18,842 nucleotides of DNA, taken from a virus. A program made the position numbers and the translations under genes. Numbering within the stretch: position 1 is the stretch's first letter; every line of letters starts with the position of its first letter. The DNA lies in UHGV virus genome UHGV-0125022. One strand, given 5' to 3'. The notes under the pieces are model-generated. The model saw only the letters and a program-made list of their open reading frames with translations, did no database searches and was not told the DNA's origin. Of this stretch, positions 2,130-13,890 are shown in pieces.

Positions 2130-3062
2130 TTAAAGAACCGATTTAACAAGATGGTTTTTACGGTACAGACCTATGCGATCATTGTGAATCTCAGTAGTCT
2201 CCACTAAAAGAGAAACAATCTGTCCGACCTTGTGTTTTTTTTGTATTAAATCTAGCATTTCAATCGGATAGGAAGCCTTTAAATGTTCACCACCAACATC
2301 AAGCTCCAGCTTCCCATATTTGGATAGAACGACCAGTTCGCCTGTAACCGTTTCAGTAATGGGAGGTGATGAAATGGTTGATGTAAGTCTACTCACCAAG
2401 TACTTAATTTTATTGGAGTCAATAGTTACCACCTTGGTGCCATTACTAAATGGACCGGTCCAACTTGCATCAAATGTTAAGTTGTGTTTATCGCATTCCT
2501 CTACGATTCTCTTAAGGCTTACAGTGGAATTGTATCCAATTTCAGCGACGTGATTCATGAAGTTGTTGTCGTCATCGCTTAACAACAAATCGAATATGCC
2601 TTTTACAGCCTTGCTGGGTACTGTTTCTACTAATTCTGCTATTCCTGTAGAGAAGGTGACGCCCAATTTTGTAGACCCAGGGGATAAATCAGCCAGCCTG
2701 AGGTTTAAGGAGCTTTTCACGTCGTAGGGAACTTTTTTTGAGTCCTTGCCTGAGGCAATTTTGTGTGTTGCTCTTTGTATTAGCGCTGCAAGATTTGTTG
2801 AAATAGCCCCAAGCAGCTCTAAAGGAATAGAGCCAAAGTCAACCTCAGAGCCTTTCAGCCGCAGCTCAAAAAAATCGATAAGTGGGTGCCGACTATCTTG
2901 CTTTAATTTTTCGGCCTTCAAATCGCTCAGATGAGAATCCATGGAGCGATAAAGAAGCATGTCAGCAAAGGACCTGGTTTTGTTTTGCTTCATTGCATCG
3001 ACTTCTTTTTGAATGAAATCAATGCGTTTATCGCAATTTTTAAACATTGATTTATCATTCAT
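2130..3062 (-). CDS. Hypothetical 310-aa protein, distal gene of the two-gene module downstream of cI; candidate superinfection-exclusion or defence effector
   Basis: Long ORF with GAGGA Shine-Dalgarno 8 nt upstream. Start overlaps the upstream stop as ATGA. AT-rich. No motif I can assign. Confidence 0.7.
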   Translation of the reverse strand: MNDKSMFKNCDKRIDFIQKEVDAMKQNKTRSFADMLLYRSMDSHLSDLKAEKLKQDSRHPLIDFFELRLKGSEVDFGSIPLELLGAISTNLAALIQRATHKIASGKDSKKVPYDVKSSLNLRLADLSPGSTKLGVTFSTGIAELVETVPSKAVKGIFDLLLSDDDNNFMNHVAEIGYNSTVSLKRIVEECDKHNLTFDASWTGPFSNGTKVVTIDSNKIKYLVSRLTSTISSPPITETVTGELVVLSKYGKLELDVGGEHLKASYPIEMLDLIQKKHKVGQIVSLLVETTEIHNDRIGLYRKNHLVKSVL

Positions 3063-3538
3063 AAAAAAATCCTCACTAACCCTTTCGGGTTTTCACTGCG
3101 ATCAAAACCAAACCAACCGCGCCAGTAGCTACGCCAGTACTCATAATCATAGTTAGGGTCATCTAAATTCTTCATGAGTAGTAGGACATCAATTTTGTAG
3201 TTTTGTTTGATGTAGTTTCGGTCAAGCAAATTATCGACGCGGCCCCGAAGCATGACAGGTATTGAGTTTATATTGCTATAGTCACATACCAACAAAATAT
3301 CAATATCATCAGGCTCTGGTTTAGACGTGGTGTATGAACCATCAACCCATATTTCTGTAAAACAGCCATATTGAGCAGATAATTCTCGAATAGATTCGAG
3401 TAGCTGTATAAAATTACAGTATAGCATGCCTCGCCTGGATGATGAAGGAAAGCAATCGACACAATACGATTTTAATCCAGCTTCATCCATGTCATGGAAC
3501 CCTGGCTCAAACAGGGGTGGGTAATTAATTTTATCCAT
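3059..3538 (-). CDS. Minimal nucleotidyltransferase (Pol-beta superfamily, MNT-like) fold protein, 159 aa
   Basis: WVDGSYTTSKPEPDDIDILLV matches the hG[GS]-x9-13-Dh[DE]h nucleotidyltransferase signature. A further Asp-bearing strand KIDVLLL lies downstream. AAGG Shine-Dalgarno upstream. Confidence 0.65.
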   Translation of the reverse strand: MDKINYPPLFEPGFHDMDEAGLKSYCVDCFPSSSRRGMLYCNFIQLLESIRELSAQYGCFTEIWVDGSYTTSKPEPDDIDILLVCDYSNINSIPVMLRGRVDNLLDRNYIKQNYKIDVLLLMKNLDDPNYDYEYWRSYWRGWFGFDRSENPKGLVRIFL

Positions 3539-4555: not shown

Positions 4556-4789
4556 ATGAGTAATGAACTACTACGCTGGCGAAAAGAGGCTTCTAGTGAG
4601 GAATGGAAGCGACTCGCCGCATTAGCGAAAACTTCAGTTGGCTATCTTGACCAGATTGCATATGGATTTCGAAGAGCTTCCCCTGATAAAGCGAATGCAA
4701 TCGAAGAAGCTACTCGTAATTTCACGGCCTATAAACCCGTGAAAAAGGAAAACCTGGTGTTCGTATCGCGTAGAGCATCAGCAGCATAA
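4556..4789 (+). CDS. cro: Cro-like transcriptional regulator
   Basis: 77-aa protein divergent from cI. ACGGAGG Shine-Dalgarno. Position and size are typical of cro. Confidence 0.75.
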   Translation: MSNELLRWRKEASSEEWKRLAALAKTSVGYLDQIAYGFRRASPDKANAIEEATRNFTAYKPVKKENLVFVSRRASAA

Positions 4790-8758: not shown

Positions 8759-8934
8759 TGCTTAGCCCATCCCAATCCCTTCAATACCAGAAAGAAAGCG
8801 TCGAGCGGGCTTTAACGTGCGCTAACTGCGGTCAGAAGCTGCATGTGCTGGAAGTTCACGTGTGTGAGCACTGCTGCGCAGAACTGATGAGCGATCCGAA
8901 TAGCTCAATGTACGAGGAAGAAGACGATGAATGA
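8758..8934 (+). CDS. ninF: NinF-like small Cys-rich protein (58 aa)
   Basis: Hand-translated: [58 protein letters not shown]. Too short for the ORF track. TAATG overlap with the upstream stop. Matches lambda NinF as recalled. Confidence 0.7.
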   Translation: MLSPSQSLQYQKESVERALTCANCGQKLHVLEVHVCEHCCAELMSDPNSSMYEEEDDE

Positions 8935-9649
8935 GTTAATAAATGGCAATGCCATCAAAATGACAAGCATTGAAATCGCTGAGTTGGTGGGTAAGCGTCA
9001 TGACAATGTGAAACGTACCATCGAAACGCTGGCTAAAAATGGTGTTATCCGGCTTCCTCAAATTGAGGTTTCCGAAAGAATCAATAACTTAGGGTTCAAT
9101 GTTCAGTACGAGCATTACGTCTTCGAAGGCGAACAAGGTAAGCGAGATAGTATTGTTGTTGTTGCCCAGTTGTCGCCAGAGTTCACCGCTCGCCTTGTTG
9201 ACCGCTGGCGAGAGCTTGAAGAAACTGCGGTTAATATCCCCAAAACGCTACCAGAAGCGTTGCGCCTTGCTGCTGATCTTGCTGAGCAGAAAATGCAACT
9301 GGAAAACCAGCTCGCAATTGCCGCACCTAAAGTTGAGTTTGCCGATCGCGTTGGCGAGGCCAGCGGAATTTTGATTGGAAACTTTGCAAAGGTTGTTGGA
9401 ATTGGTCCAAACAAACTGTTTGCGTGGATGCGCGATCACAAAATCCTTATTGCTTCAGGTTCCCGGCGCAATGTGCCAATGCAGGAATATATGGAGCGCG
9501 GCTATTTCACAGTGAAAGAAACAGCGGTCAACACAAATCACGGAATACAGATATCGTTCACCACAAAAATCACCGGGCGTGGTCAACAGTGGCTGACCAG
9601 AAAGCTGCTCGATAACGGAATGCTGAAAGTAACAGGGGAGGCTGCTTAA
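8927..9649 (+). CDS. Phage antirepressor (N-terminal Rha-type domain plus C-terminal KilA-C/AntB-type domain)
   Basis: N-terminal SIEIAELVGKRHDNVKRTIE is the Rha-family hallmark. 240 aa with the C-terminal region typical of KilA-C antirepressors. Confidence 0.75.
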   Translation: MNELINGNAIKMTSIEIAELVGKRHDNVKRTIETLAKNGVIRLPQIEVSERINNLGFNVQYEHYVFEGEQGKRDSIVVVAQLSPEFTARLVDRWRELEETAVNIPKTLPEALRLAADLAEQKMQLENQLAIAAPKVEFADRVGEASGILIGNFAKVVGIGPNKLFAWMRDHKILIASGSRRNVPMQEYMERGYFTVKETAVNTNHGIQISFTTKITGRGQQWLTRKLLDNGMLKVTGEAA

Positions 9650-10298: not shown

Positions 10299-10483
10299 AC
10301 GCCACAATTCAAACGATACCAGAGCTTCTTATCCAGACACGAGGCAATCAGACCGAAGTGGCGAGGATGCTTTCCTGCGCAAGAGGAACAGTGCTCAAGT
10401 ACAACCGAGACAGAAAAGGCGAGCGTCACGTAATAGTTAACGGCGTCCTGATGGTCAAACAGGGCAAGAGGGGTAGACCATGA
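10295..10483 (+). CDS. ninH: NinH-like protein
   Basis: TIPELLIQTRGNQTEVARMLSCARGTVLKY resembles lambda NinH as recalled. Located just before Q. Confidence 0.75.
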   Translation: MNATIQTIPELLIQTRGNQTEVARMLSCARGTVLKYNRDRKGERHVIVNGVLMVKQGKRGRP

Positions 10484-11103
10484 GACTCGAAAGCGTAGCT
10501 AAATTTCATTCGCCAAAAAGCCCGATGATGAGCGACTCACCACGGGCTACGGCTTCTGACTCTCTTTCCGGTACTGATGTGATGGCTGCTATGGGGATGG
10601 CGCAATCACAAGCCGGATTTGGAATGGCTGCGTTCTGTGGTAAGCACGAACTCAGCCAGAATGACAAACAAAAAGCCATCAACTATCTGATGCAATTTGC
10701 ACACAAGGTATCGGGGAAATACCGTGGCGTTGCAAAGCTTGAAGGAAATACTAAGGCAAAGGTACTGCAAGTGCTCGCAACATTCGCTTATGCGGATTAT
10801 TGCCGTAGTGCCGCGACGCCGGGAGCAAGGTGCAGAGATTGCCACGGTACAGGCCGTGCGGTTGATATATCAAAAACAGAGCTGTGGGGGAGAGTTGTTG
10901 AGAAAGAATGCGGAAGATGCAAAGGTGTCGGCTATTCAAGAATGCCAGCAAGCGCCGCATATCGCGCTGTGACGATGCTAATACCCAACCTTACCCAACC
11001 AACCTGGTCACGCACTGTTAAGCCGCTGTATGACGCTCTGGTGGTGCAATGCCACAAGGAAGAGTCAATCGCAGACAACATTTTGAATGCGGTCACACGT
11101 TAG
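10480..11103 (+). CDS. Q: Late-gene antiterminator Q (lambda Q type)
   Basis: 207 aa. Sequence matches lambda Q over essentially the full length as I recall it, including the zinc-binding CRDCHGTGR...CGRCKG. A lambda-like pR' follows. Confidence 0.9.
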   Translation: MRLESVAKFHSPKSPMMSDSPRATASDSLSGTDVMAAMGMAQSQAGFGMAAFCGKHELSQNDKQKAINYLMQFAHKVSGKYRGVAKLEGNTKAKVLQVLATFAYADYCRSAATPGARCRDCHGTGRAVDISKTELWGRVVEKECGRCKGVGYSRMPASAAYRAVTMLIPNLTQPTWSRTVKPLYDALVVQCHKEESIADNILNAVTR

Positions 11104-11145: not shown

Positions 11146-11183
11146 TTGACTTTTTGAATAAAGTTGGGTAAATTTGACCCAAC
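11146..11183 (+). promoter_or_regulatory. Late promoter pR' with qut region (-35 TTGACT 11146-11151, -10 TAAATT 11169-11174, 17-bp spacer)
   Basis: TTGACTTTTTGAATAAAGTTGGGTAAATTTGACCCAACGATGGGTTAAT is near-identical to the lambda pR'/qut sequence as recalled. Confidence 0.75.
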
Positions 11184-11206
11184 GATGGGTTAATGCCTTC
11201 GTTTAA

Positions 11207-11241
11207 AGCCCCGCGGATAACACCGTGGGGCTTTTGCGTTT
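11207..11241 (+). terminator. tR'-like terminator about 25-60 nt downstream of the pR' start
   Basis: AGCCCCGCGG / CCGUGGGGCU 10-bp stem with one G-U pair and an AUAACA loop, followed by UUUGCGUUUC. Confidence 0.6.
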
Positions 11242-11253
11242 CTGGAGGTAACG

Positions 11254-11272
11254 GCGAGGCGCTACCCTCGCC
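11254..11272. terminator. Second hairpin (GGCGAGG / CCTCGCC, 5-nt loop) between tR' and the 3' end of the convergent minus-strand gene; possible bidirectional terminator
   Basis: 7-bp perfect stem read from the sequence. Weak T-tracts on both sides. Confidence 0.4.
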
Positions 11273-11278
11273 TTAACA

Positions 11279-11695
11279 TTAAGGGAGGGTTTTCATTACG
11301 CTATCAATCTCCCTTCCTTCAAATCTTGAAGTCCAGCCGCAGGAGCCGCAATGGTAAGGAAAGTCATCGAACCCGCTACCGACCTGTTTAAGACAGTTGG
11401 GGCAATAAACCGCGCTGATATACCCACCCGCGGGATTTTTTCTAAAGGCCGCACCCATGTGCTCGACAAACTCATCCTTTGCCCGATAAGCCGCTATTTC
11501 CTTCTCAAGTTCTACGTTCTTGGCTTTCGCCTCGGCAAGTTCTGCTATGGTGGCAGCATGGGCTTTTTGAAGTACGTCGATCTGCTCTCCAATGAAAGCG
11601 ATGCGCTCGCGCAGGACCTCGTTACTTTGCACAGCAGAAAGCGCGCCGATCCCGTTTTTAAGGGACGCGATAAGTAATCCTACATCCATGGTCAT
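11279..11695 (-). CDS. Hypothetical cargo protein: N-terminal coiled-coil-like region plus C-terminal CxxC...CxxC zinc ribbon, convergent to late transcription
   Basis: 138-aa ORF. C-terminal CPNC-x14-CGSC. N-terminal heptad-like, Ala/Glu/Lys-rich segment. AGGGA Shine-Dalgarno. Start may be M1 (11695) or M3 (11689). Confidence 0.6.
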   Translation of the reverse strand: MTMDVGLLIASLKNGIGALSAVQSNEVLRERIAFIGEQIDVLQKAHAATIAELAEAKAKNVELEKEIAAYRAKDEFVEHMGAAFRKNPAGGYISAVYCPNCLKQVGSGFDDFPYHCGSCGWTSRFEGREIDSVMKTLP

Positions 11696-11944
11696 TCCCT
11701 AATTGTCTGTGGAATGACCAATTTAGCAATTTCCTTTATCTGTGGAAAGCAGGGAAACCACGCGCCGGGCGTGGATAAATATCCCGGTATTGAATCGACT
11801 GTTGGCTGCCGCTTGGCGGCCTTTTTCATTTCAGGCTCACGGGAATCATCCGCTACGTGCTTTGTTGATAAATCCATCCCGTGAAGCCTGACCCTTTTCA
11901 AACACACACACACAGCGCCATCCGAAAAATCGGAGGTGAGGCCT

Positions 11945-12268
11945 ATGAAAATGCCATACAAACAAGATTTCATCGCTGCGCTACTTGCCGCCAAGGAGCA
12001 GGGTATTGGTGCAATGCTGGCTTTTATCATGGCGTATCTGCGTGGTCGCTATAACGGCGGCGCGGTAACAAAAACGCTAATTGATGCGCTGATGTGCGCG
12101 ATGATTGCCTGGTTCGTTCGTGACCTTCTGGACTTTATCGGCCTGAGCAGCAACCTCGCCTACATAGCCAGCGTCTTTATTGGATACATCGGCACCGATT
12201 CGATCGGCAATCTTATTAAAAAACTTGCAGCAAAAAAGGCGGGAGTTGACGATGCAAACCAGTCCTGA
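11945..12268 (+). CDS. S: Class I holin S (lambda S type) with dual-start motif
   Basis: [27 protein letters not shown] resembles lambda S105/S107 as recalled. GGAGGTGA Shine-Dalgarno. ORF track begins at an in-frame GTG at 11936. Confidence 0.9.
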
Positions 12269-13222: not shown

Positions 13223-13371
13223 ACATCTGAATTTCACAGCGCATCTCACGCGCATATTACATCACCCGAGCCTTTCAGAAAGTTGAGCCTGAGAACTGCC
13301 GTATATGGTGGCGACCATCTCGGGGCGGCTTTTCTGTGAGACAGGCTCACTTTCTAAAAGGTAAAGACGCT

Positions 13372-13890
13372 ATGAATAATCCGTCAGTTATTCCGGCCTT
13401 CGACTTCCGCGAAATGGTCACGACCCTCGACAACAAGATAATCACCACATCACTCAAGGTGGCGGATTACTTTGGCAAGCGACACAAAGACGTTTTGCGT
13501 GCCATACGTAACCTGAAATGCTCCGATGACTTCACCCAGCGCAATTTTGCGCCCATTGATTTCATTGATAAAAATGGCGATGTTCAGCCTATGTATAACA
13601 TCACCCGCGACGGATGCATGATGCTAGTGATGGGATTCACTGGCAAAACAGCTGCCGCAGTGAAGGAGTGTTACATCAATGCCTTCAACTGGATGGCCGA
13701 GCAGCTAAACCGGCGCATGGCGATGGGTGAAGAATTGCAGCATCGCTACGCCATCAAAGAAACGCGCTCAAAGCTGAAAGGCACGATCGGAAGCCGTTTG
13801 ATGAACGAGCGGAAGAAAGAGAAGCGCGTCCTGGAGCTCGAACATGAGCACATCATGCAGGTAACGCAGCCGGAATTACTTATTGGCTGA
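13372..13890 (+). CDS. rha: Rha-family phage regulatory protein
   Basis: N-terminal TSLKVADYFGKRHKDVLRAIRNL is the Rha-domain hallmark. ORF track 13336..13890; ATG at 13372 preferred. Confidence 0.7.
   Translation: MNNPSVIPAFDFREMVTTLDNKIITTSLKVADYFGKRHKDVLRAIRNLKCSDDFTQRNFAPIDFIDKNGDVQPMYNITRDGCMMLVMGFTGKTAAAVKECYINAFNWMAEQLNRRMAMGEELQHRYAIKETRSKLKGTIGSRLMNERKKEKRVLELEHEHIMQVTQPELLIG

Follow-up and report, generated by a model that had tools for sequence, protein, structure and literature searches.

A travelling cassette of lambdoid phages with a reversed zinc-ribbon gene and an apparently selected reading frame on its opposite strand

What is carried by a gene that stands reversed between the late promoter and the holin gene of a lambdoid phage, and does the strand facing it carry anything more than its complement? 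The question is raised by UHGV virus genome UHGV-0125022, whose 18,842 nucleotides were analysed as one stretch (the window) and which is, by gene content, a lambdoid phage or prophage. On its minus strand, upstream of the holin gene S, lies a gene for a protein with a long helix and a zinc ribbon; in the complementary codon register of that gene, the plus strand holds a second open reading frame (ORF). As read here, positions 11242-11815 constitute a mobile accessory cassette, or moron, which on balance seems to code on both strands.

The original prediction described a minus-strand gene of 138 codons at 11279-11695. The ORF is present, and its start has to be moved to the third codon: all 27 close homologues that were aligned begin there, with MD[VI]G, so that the gene is taken as 11279..11689 (minus strand), with its ATG at 11689 and a product of 136 amino acids plus stop. 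An AGGGA Shine-Dalgarno motif at 11700-11696 (minus strand) has the correct spacing for this start. The translation contains the CPNC-x14-CGSC motif as foreseen, reading C98-P-N-C101, 14 residues and C116-G-S-C119 in the numbering of the 138-residue ORF, and the four cysteines are invariant in 28 aligned close homologues as well as in all 39 distinct nucleotide versions. The Nei-Gojobori ratio of nonsynonymous to synonymous substitution (dN/dS) for these 39 versions was 0.21 in the minus frame, the lowest of the six frames; coding conservation, which the original prediction had named as a check, thus came out as purifying selection. Homologues formed 66 clusters at 90% identity, and a profile search (E<=0.001) returned 464 clusters at 50% identity, nearly all of 125-145 amino acids. 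Homologues occur in Enterobacterales, Vibrio and Pasteurella and were recognisable down to ~30% identity. With these 66 and 464 clusters and a dN/dS of 0.21, a chance origin is excluded and the zinc-ribbon ORF is real.

A coiled-coil-like N-terminus and a C-terminal four-cysteine zinc ribbon had been proposed for the protein, with structure prediction as the means of checking them, and a helical N-terminal half and the zinc ribbon were recovered. The AlphaFold2 model, calculated with the homologue alignment (mean predicted local distance difference test, pLDDT, of 89), opens with helices at residues 5-21 and 26-74; a beta-rich zinc-ribbon domain follows at 76-126, and a short helix closes the C-terminus. 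The ~50-residue helix probably forms a coiled-coil oligomer. Two surfaces are conserved: the start of the long helix, (V/I)LRER(I/L), and a basic strand together with the zinc ribbon, AAFRK...YCPNC (FKRK in distant relatives). The middle of the long helix is variable and spacer-like. Because of this arrangement, the protein appears to fit an oligomeric adaptor that would bind nucleic acid or another protein. It is predicted to be cytoplasmic; the idea of a membrane anchor at residues 3-21 was dropped in view of a hydropathy of 1.28 (best 19-residue segment), conserved Lys and Asn in mid-segment, and the absence of the segment from distant relatives.

The protein family is already catalogued, yet uncharacterised. 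PHROG 1244, listed with function unknown, matched residues 3-135 over profile positions 2-155 of 157 (E 5.8e-26), and the names given in RefSeq are "hypothetical" and "coiled-coil domain-containing protein". The Pfam scan yielded no family at threshold, only weak coiled-coil matches, and the NCBIfam scan yielded no match; searches of the PDB by sequence and by profile returned nothing beyond coiled coils of a generic kind and the zinc ribbons of TiaS or ribosomal proteins. The best structural neighbour was CT398, which also joins a coiled coil to a zinc ribbon and stood only marginally above background. Among the longer homologues scanned for domain fusions, none carried a Pfam domain. Two distant homologues (P0119 and P0194, loci L025-L031) are extended at the C-terminus by ~90 amino acids that resemble a winged-helix DNA-binding domain and had no counterpart in Pfam or among PDB sequences. 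The L025 copy stands in a small integrative element, where no other gene between xis-int and the replication genes is reversed. Searches of the literature turned up no paper on either the zinc-ribbon protein or HK225 gp67.

The facing strand was analysed codon by codon. The plus-strand ORF (11351..11677) encodes a basic product of 108 amino acids, runs with late transcription in the complementary codon register of the zinc-ribbon gene, and is preceded at a distance of 5 nt by an AGGAG Shine-Dalgarno-like motif (11341..11345, plus strand). Statistics for this antisense frame were drawn from 17 lineages with <88% nucleotide identity to one another, counting as stop-generating the sense codons TTA, CTA and TCA, which place a stop in the antisense frame. 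Such codons account for 4 of the 199 Leu and Ser codons at positions 6-119, against 24 of 71 at positions 120-136 and 28% in flanking genes (p ~4e-12), and the few exceptions are located in codons 9-26. The frame is open also in homologues of 29-42% identity. Among distant homologues the three codons make up 17 of 151, compared with 385 of 1786 in flanking genes (p 0.002), and in 8 of 9 the central region is free of them. In the Pasteurella copy, which is AT-rich, no stop-generating codon precedes codon 103, against a flanking-gene background of 50%.

Synonymous change is reduced over the same interval. Third-position synonymous divergence was 0.18-0.22 in windows covering codons 33-88 and 0.27-0.29 in codons 81-112, and rose to 0.5-0.6 at both ends; the low values (0.18-0.29) span codons 25-112, a region that is not better conserved at the protein level. 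Tree-based parsimony gave the same two- to three-fold drop. Conserved residues are encoded by identical codons in 59-82% of cases in the centre and mostly 30-50% at the ends, and this holds in every pair, including pairs of 57% protein identity. Conserved degenerate columns that use essentially one codon number 30 of 65 in the centre, as opposed to 0 of 14 and 2 of 13 at the ends, and even rare codons are fixed (AGA at R83, 16/16; ATA at I65, 14/14). Saturation of sites that are synonymous in both frames is no lower in the centre than elsewhere, so that a merely "younger" centre is disfavoured. The two Gln codons that can change silently in either frame show full polymorphism beside invariant neighbours. 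The silent changes that are tolerated are conservative in the antisense protein (mean BLOSUM +0.63 vs -0.48 expected). RNAalifold detected no conserved RNA structure (covariation term +0.22) that would explain the constraint.

The boundaries of the antisense frame are conserved as well. Sense H113 is CAT in 15/15 cases, which supplies the antisense ATG (the start is ATG in 15 of the 17 lineages, plus one TTG), and sense L5 is TTA or CTA in 15/16, which supplies the antisense stop. Codon 116 is TCC in 12/12 lineages with Ser and ACC in 4/5 with Thr; hence a Shine-Dalgarno-like motif is preserved, and CAGGA(G) or CAGGT lies 6-7 nt upstream of the antisense ATG in 16/17 lineages. Outside the overlap, codons 114-136 evolve in the minus frame like ordinary coding sequence. 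Database relatives of the plus-strand product form 30 clusters of ~80-145 amino acids, most of them 108 amino acids long, and were presumably called on the same loci. What was found is thus a frame open beyond the expectation from codon usage, a synonymous drop confined to the overlap, and a conserved start with a ribosome-binding site upstream. On these comparisons, selection very probably keeps the plus-strand frame open and constrains its sequence; that the ORF is translated into a functional product appears probable too, with a good deal less assurance. The original prediction regarded late read-through as antisense to the zinc-ribbon gene. The opposed orientation stands, but the transcript is probably not merely antisense, since it contains a 108-codon ORF under apparent selection.

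The location of the gene was predicted to result from insertion of cargo between pR'/tR' and the holin, and comparison with related phages agrees. In the window, the lambda-type Q gene (10480-11103) is followed by the late promoter pR' (TTGACT-17-TAAATT, 11146..11174, plus strand, from a promoter scan), which belongs to the backbone outside the cassette and at whose position a promoter and qut site are annotated in related phages; S starts at 11945. The match with HK97 extends to 11241 and resumes at the start of S, HK97 having 428 bp and no gene in the gap; a Klebsiella phage matches from 11816 onward. Since the one homology ends at 11241 and the other begins at 11816 (blastn edges), the insert is placed at ~11242-11815, relative to an HK97-type backbone on the left and a Klebsiella-phage-type backbone on the right. 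Phage Louie matches throughout at 99% identity. In HK225 the cassette recurs (98% identity), flanked there by a Q of the 82/Qin type and by a different holin. Among 5426 complete E. coli genomes, it was present in only 10.

About 90 related loci were collected and classified by slot and orientation. Some copies stand in the Q-S slot, flanked by either of two unrelated kinds of Q and by several kinds of holin; others follow Rz directly, in the place of bor in lambda, or separate kilR from the repressor or cII from O, and yet others lie within tail or baseplate operons. In loci L015-L018, the position between kilR and repressor and the reversed orientation are those of sieB in the Rac prophage of K-12. 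In ES2 and in Salmonella prophages the gene lies 2-3 nt downstream of an Arc/Mnt-type ribbon-helix-helix (RHH) gene, which is itself divergent from arc-ant or Bro-N. Homologues of ~35% identity occur in unrelated integrative elements, alone and reversed within early operons. These comparisons indicate that the cassette is mobile and moves independently of its neighbours.

The gene had been predicted to face Q-dependent late transcription, and it does: it lies on the minus strand, opposed to the late operon. Flanking lytic genes are on the opposite strand in every locus with informative flanks except L032. Because of this near-constant opposition, and because of the sieB slot in Rac-like prophages and the position behind an Arc/Mnt-type gene, the zinc-ribbon gene is most likely transcribed from a promoter of its own in the lysogen while the lytic operons are silent, as far as its placement can tell.

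Which sequences might drive such transcription was examined in the leader. The original prediction assigned the gene an upstream region of its own extending over 11696-11944. A region of its own was confirmed for only ~95 nt, from 11690 to ~11785; the segment 11816-11944 is native holin-upstream DNA, common to a Klebsiella phage. The same ORF is paired with at least three unrelated upstream arrangements, of which the ~95 nt of the window represent "type 1". A hairpin formed by GGUCAUUCC...GGAAUGACC (11690..11719, minus strand; 10 bp, -14.8 kcal/mol, z -3.55) sequesters the AGGGA Shine-Dalgarno motif; on the alignment it had no single consensus structure, as its stems lie in different registers. 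Directly upstream is a candidate extended -10 element, TGcTAAATT (11720..11728, minus strand), whose position is conserved across lineages and is occupied elsewhere by TGTGTATAAT, TGATATATT, TGATAAATT or TATAGT. At the upstream edge of the conserved leader, a hairpin CCACGC-CCGGC-GCGTGG (11758..11774, minus strand) shows paired substitutions between lineages (CCAC/GTGG to CCTC/GAGG), the fold alone not being significant (z -1.4).

The -10 element is bracketed by two direct copies of TTCCACAGA at 11747-11739 and 11714-11706 (minus strand), 33 nt apart; in type 1 leaders generally the spacing is 33-34 nt. The sequence of the repeat varies by lineage (TTCCACAGAcAA, CCCCAACaTAA, ACCACAACG), and the two copies always agree. 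Loci in which this variation around the -10 element was seen are L003, L004, L014, L084 and L085. The repeats do not track the protein: the proteins of L084 and L085 are 97% identical and their repeats differ. On this comparison, the repeats are unlikely to be read specifically by products of the cassette itself, and autoregulation is weakened as an explanation. A second leader type (L063-L078, L005, L088) consists of a 15-bp palindrome, CTGAT-N5-ATCAG, followed by CCAGGTTAGGCTG. Being unrelated to type 1, it means that the same ORF has been combined with different control regions. A LexA box was considered for it and rejected, as the palindrome is CTG-N9-CAG and not N10.

The two hairpins said to bracket the gene on its 3' side have different owners. 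The one at 11253..11272 (minus strand; -15.6 kcal/mol, z -2.7) directly follows the stop codon and is a candidate terminator of the zinc-ribbon gene; a post-stop hairpin of different sequence occurs in most of the 38 related loci listed. The other, at 11208-11231, belongs to tR' of the late operon, the intrinsic terminator of the short pR' transcript (11205..11241, plus strand), in which the hairpin is followed by UUUUGCGUUU. With its T-run it reaches -25 kcal/mol (z -5.9) on the plus strand and -20 kcal/mol on the minus strand. A terminator is annotated at this position in HK225, and tR' lies inside a stretch common to HK97, HK544, mEpX1 and others. Read on the minus strand, 12 nt beyond the post-stop hairpin, the tR' hairpin may be a back-up terminator of the zinc-ribbon gene.

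Between the cassette and S, a terminator-like hairpin with a T-run is found on the plus strand (11804..11831), in Q-S-slot copies only. The late strand within 11749-11831 (plus strand) holds a hairpin and an intrinsic terminator, GGCTGCCGCTTGGCGGCC followed by TTTTT. The Salmonella prophage small RNA isrK (RF01394) aligned to 11749-11826 (plus strand) at 21.2 bits, against a gathering threshold of 50. A 75-amino-acid ORF at 11692-11919 (minus strand) overlaps the start of the zinc-ribbon ORF by ATGA, is annotated as a coding sequence in phage Louie, has a weak match to PHROG 37047, and spans the leader and the plus-strand terminator. It was considered as an operon partner and set aside, as homology to the cassette elsewhere ends ~95 nt upstream and no similar ORF is present there; to judge from these comparisons, it is probably no gene.

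A likely course of events can be drawn from this arrangement. The minus-strand unit would be self-contained, with a short conserved leader, a 136-amino-acid gene and a hairpin after its stop. In the lysogen, transcripts from pR' would end at tR', and the minus-strand unit would be transcribed from its own promoter towards tR'. Upon induction, polymerase modified by Q would pass tR' and the cassette; late transcription would then occlude the minus-strand promoter and yield RNA fully complementary to the zinc-ribbon mRNA. On this late transcript the first ORF, ahead of S, would be the plus-strand one, which brings a Shine-Dalgarno motif of its own. Where the cassette sits elsewhere, the plus-strand ORF would be read from the lytic transcript of whichever operon hosts it.

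As to function, we tentatively suggest that the zinc-ribbon protein might exclude or abort other phages through a nucleic acid or protein target, and that the plus-strand product, or its translation, might serve the phage's own lytic growth. The suggestion of exclusion comes from position: the sieB slot, the bor slot and the place downstream of mnt. A bolder version, which we regard as speculative and rather unlikely, would make the locus a two-protein self-immunity toggle, in which the zinc-ribbon protein acts in the lysogen (for example by exclusion) and the antisense protein, produced from the lytic operon, counteracts it or switches it off. Under such a toggle, the cassette family would span temperate phages and integrative elements, with each strand tied to one life-style programme.

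A number of observations weigh against a two-strand cassette with these properties. On the side of the minus-strand unit, the hairpin at 11253-11272 lacks a U-tract, the -10 element scored below the threshold of the consensus promoter scan, and the hairpin that sequesters the Shine-Dalgarno motif, though found with other stem sequences in some relatives, is weak or absent in several. The composition expected of a moron was not found, the insert having a G+C content of 0.509 against 0.487 for the window and 0.49-0.53 for neighbouring genes. In L032, a short metagenome contig, the neighbours are on the same strand. Regarding exclusion, the protein is tied to it by position only; no defence model of PADLOC-DB 2.0 matched either the zinc-ribbon protein or the plus-strand product, and Foldseek searches of the PDB and BFVD with the zinc-ribbon protein returned nothing at E<=0.001 and no informative structural neighbour. 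The plus-strand product, for its part, had no match in family searches, and its AlphaFold2 model (pLDDT 59) is one long helix with no confident fold. In an OLGenie-like analysis, the ratio of changes nonsynonymous in both frames (NN) to those nonsynonymous in one frame and synonymous in the other (NS) did not separate the centre from the ends, position 2 dominating the NN class, and a comparison of conservative with radical two-fold sites gave a trend only (p 0.09). Antisense ORFs in the same register are, moreover, a known by-product of codon bias.

One alternative explanation is that the cassette is an ordinary one-gene moron whose antisense frame is a translated spacer against Rho-dependent polarity. 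An untranslated stretch of 400-600 nt in a lytic operon could trigger polarity downstream; ribosomes would cover the transcript, and the sequence of the product would have no function. In nearly all loci, tail operons included, the gene runs against its lytic neighbours; the start codon, the Shine-Dalgarno motif and the open frame are conserved, the latter even in very distant homologues; the product lacks a confident fold or family, and its last ~20 residues are unconstrained. All of this is as a spacer would have it. Avoidance of stops, however, touches only Leu and Ser codons, so that it can neither halve synonymous divergence at all residue types nor fix the rare AGA and ATA codons, and it does not account for tolerated changes being conservative in the antisense protein. 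In the Q-S slot, besides, polymerase is Q-modified (lambda Q makes polymerase termination-resistant), and polarity should matter little there. We therefore rate the spacer as an unlikely explanation, though one to be reckoned with. Somewhat less likely again is a one-gene moron with a meaningless shadow ORF, the synonymous conservation being due to an RNA element, a DNA site or an uneven recombination history. Long, directly complementary ORFs are commonly by-products of codon usage, on which there is a sceptical preprint; divergence at the gene ends is somewhat raised at every codon position, and lineages have clearly swapped leaders and 3' ends. Against a shadow ORF, codon identity in the centre is elevated in every pair, even where a third of the central residues differ, and doubly synonymous sites are saturated there; RNAalifold found no conserved structure, and the antisense ATG and the Shine-Dalgarno motif, both outside the core of low divergence, coincide exactly with conserved silent sites. 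The Pasteurella copy, too, avoids the three codons in the face of a 50% background.

The repeats invite another explanation, which we rate about as unlikely as the shadow ORF: rather than lysogen-expressed cargo, the zinc-ribbon gene could be a phage function under regulation, perhaps one that controls induction or an antirepressor, and be turned on or off by a factor bound at the repeats. These bracket the -10 element with the second copy at about +1, a typical operator geometry, and the copies change together; arc-ant, Bro-N or Rha-ANT genes are neighbours in several phages, and the two distant homologues with the C-terminal extension are winged-helix-like in that part. The association with antirepressors is nevertheless confined to a minority of contexts, the 97%-identical proteins carry different repeats, and the same ORF occurs with at least three unrelated upstream regions. 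Finally, the plus-strand ORF could be the sole real gene, belonging to the late operon, and the zinc-ribbon ORF its shadow. Co-orientation with its neighbours in nearly all loci and a good Shine-Dalgarno motif with ATG would suit this, but it is effectively refuted by the minus frame, which has the lowest dN/dS, four invariant Cys, a confidently folded product, homologues recognisable to ~30% identity and, in codons 114-136, the evolution of an ordinary coding sequence.

A cassette coding on both strands may be compared with several known systems. Morons are described as DNA added between genes that adjoin one another in related phages, forming an independent transcription unit and spread horizontally (PMC3594210). 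Like the lambdoid morons bor and lom of lambda and gp15 of HK97, the cassette is extra DNA between otherwise adjacent genes, and some of its copies share the post-Rz slot with lambda bor. Unlike characterised morons, it bears no sequence relationship to their products, has the same composition as the host phage, is found in early, late and structural operons alike, and has an apparent second, antisense coding frame. As a moron alone, the cassette belongs to an already known kind.

For a locus with two products, the nearest functional analogy is sieB/esc/sas of P22, in which the superinfection-exclusion gene sieB (known also from Rac and lambda) is coupled to the self-protection product Esc and the antisense RNA sas within the same DNA. 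Relatives of the window cassette show the order kilR(-), gene(+), repressor(-), ydaS/ydaT(+), as for sieB in Rac, whereas the window copy sits in the Q-S slot. In contrast to SieB, the zinc-ribbon protein has no Pfam-level homology and no convincing membrane segment (hydropathy 1.28, as above), and Esc is an in-frame product of the same strand while the plus-strand ORF is antisense. BstA of the Salmonella prophage BTP1 is an abortive-infection defence protein encoded next to the repressor, with an embedded aba that protects the resident phage. The concept of a second function inside the coding DNA of a gene is shared, but aba is an element of DNA rather than an ORF, the sequences are not similar, and a role in defence is here only a candidate.

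With regard to the protein, HP0958 (FlgZ) and CT398 (CdsZ) of PF02591 join a coiled coil to a C-terminal four-cysteine zinc ribbon, a plan that the zinc-ribbon protein may share; neither the Pfam scan (E<=0.1) nor the profile search against PDB sequences brought up PF02591. DksA/TraR and YabA are of similar size and overall plan and combine a coiled coil with a zinc-binding domain. TraR-like genes are common in lambdoid nin regions, and one was seen in L018. The zinc-ribbon protein had no Pfam match to PF01258 or to the YabA family, and it differs from DksA in the spacing of its Cys pairs (x14 here, x17 in DksA) and in helix topology.

Antisense overlapping or ambigrammatic genes have been reported from enterohaemorrhagic Escherichia coli, Pseudomonas and narnaviruses (PMC9927249, PMC8850804, PMC6884476). 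As in the ambigrammatic narnaviruses, the reverse ORF of the cassette is in complementary register and is kept open by avoidance of TTA, CTA and TCA. Two features set the cassette apart from those antisense genes: it is a small mobile element of temperate DNA phages whose strands fall in opposite programmes (prophage and lytic), and its antisense property is kept across a family diverged to ~30% identity.

The remainder of the window has the gene content of a lambdoid phage. It encodes an S24-type repressor, CII, O and a DnaC-like loader, a candidate ORF in the cro position (4556-4789) with no family match, and a Rha/KilAC antirepressor together with RusA; S is followed by lysozyme and Rz. Directly downstream of the cI-like repressor, where lambda has rexAB, two genes (2130-3538, minus strand) correspond to PDC-M63, a candidate defence system of PADLOC: PDC-M63A at 3059-3538 (minus strand; E 1.8e-41, also Pfam DUF6932) and PDC-M63B at 2130-3062 (minus strand; E 6.9e-45). 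Two genes belong to the Rha family, at 8927-9649 and 13336-13890 (both plus strand); the Rha gene fused to the KilAC antirepressor domain sits in the nin region and the second one just after Rz, a region in which the annotation of phage Louie labels one gene as an anti-CRISPR protein. About 30 nt upstream of the holin start, an (AC)n tract (11902-11914) varies in length in 2-nt steps among otherwise near-identical phages, measuring 11 nt in Louie, 13 nt in the window and 15 nt in L042.

Taken together, a conserved antisense frame, opposite transcription programmes and a single travelling cassette make up a new form of two known things, morons and antisense overlapping genes. If only the zinc-ribbon part is true, the cassette is one more uncharacterised moron, with an unusual mobility that takes it into early, late and structural operons. 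Should the second frame be real, the pair would rank among the few antisense overlapping genes of bacteria or phages with comparative support across a deep family, and a function would be suggested by the fact that the two strands are read in mutually exclusive states of the life cycle. The debated functionality of long prokaryotic antisense ORFs would then become testable in the E. coli phages HK225 and Louie, and the classic prophage hot spots may harbour a new exclusion or self-immunity module.

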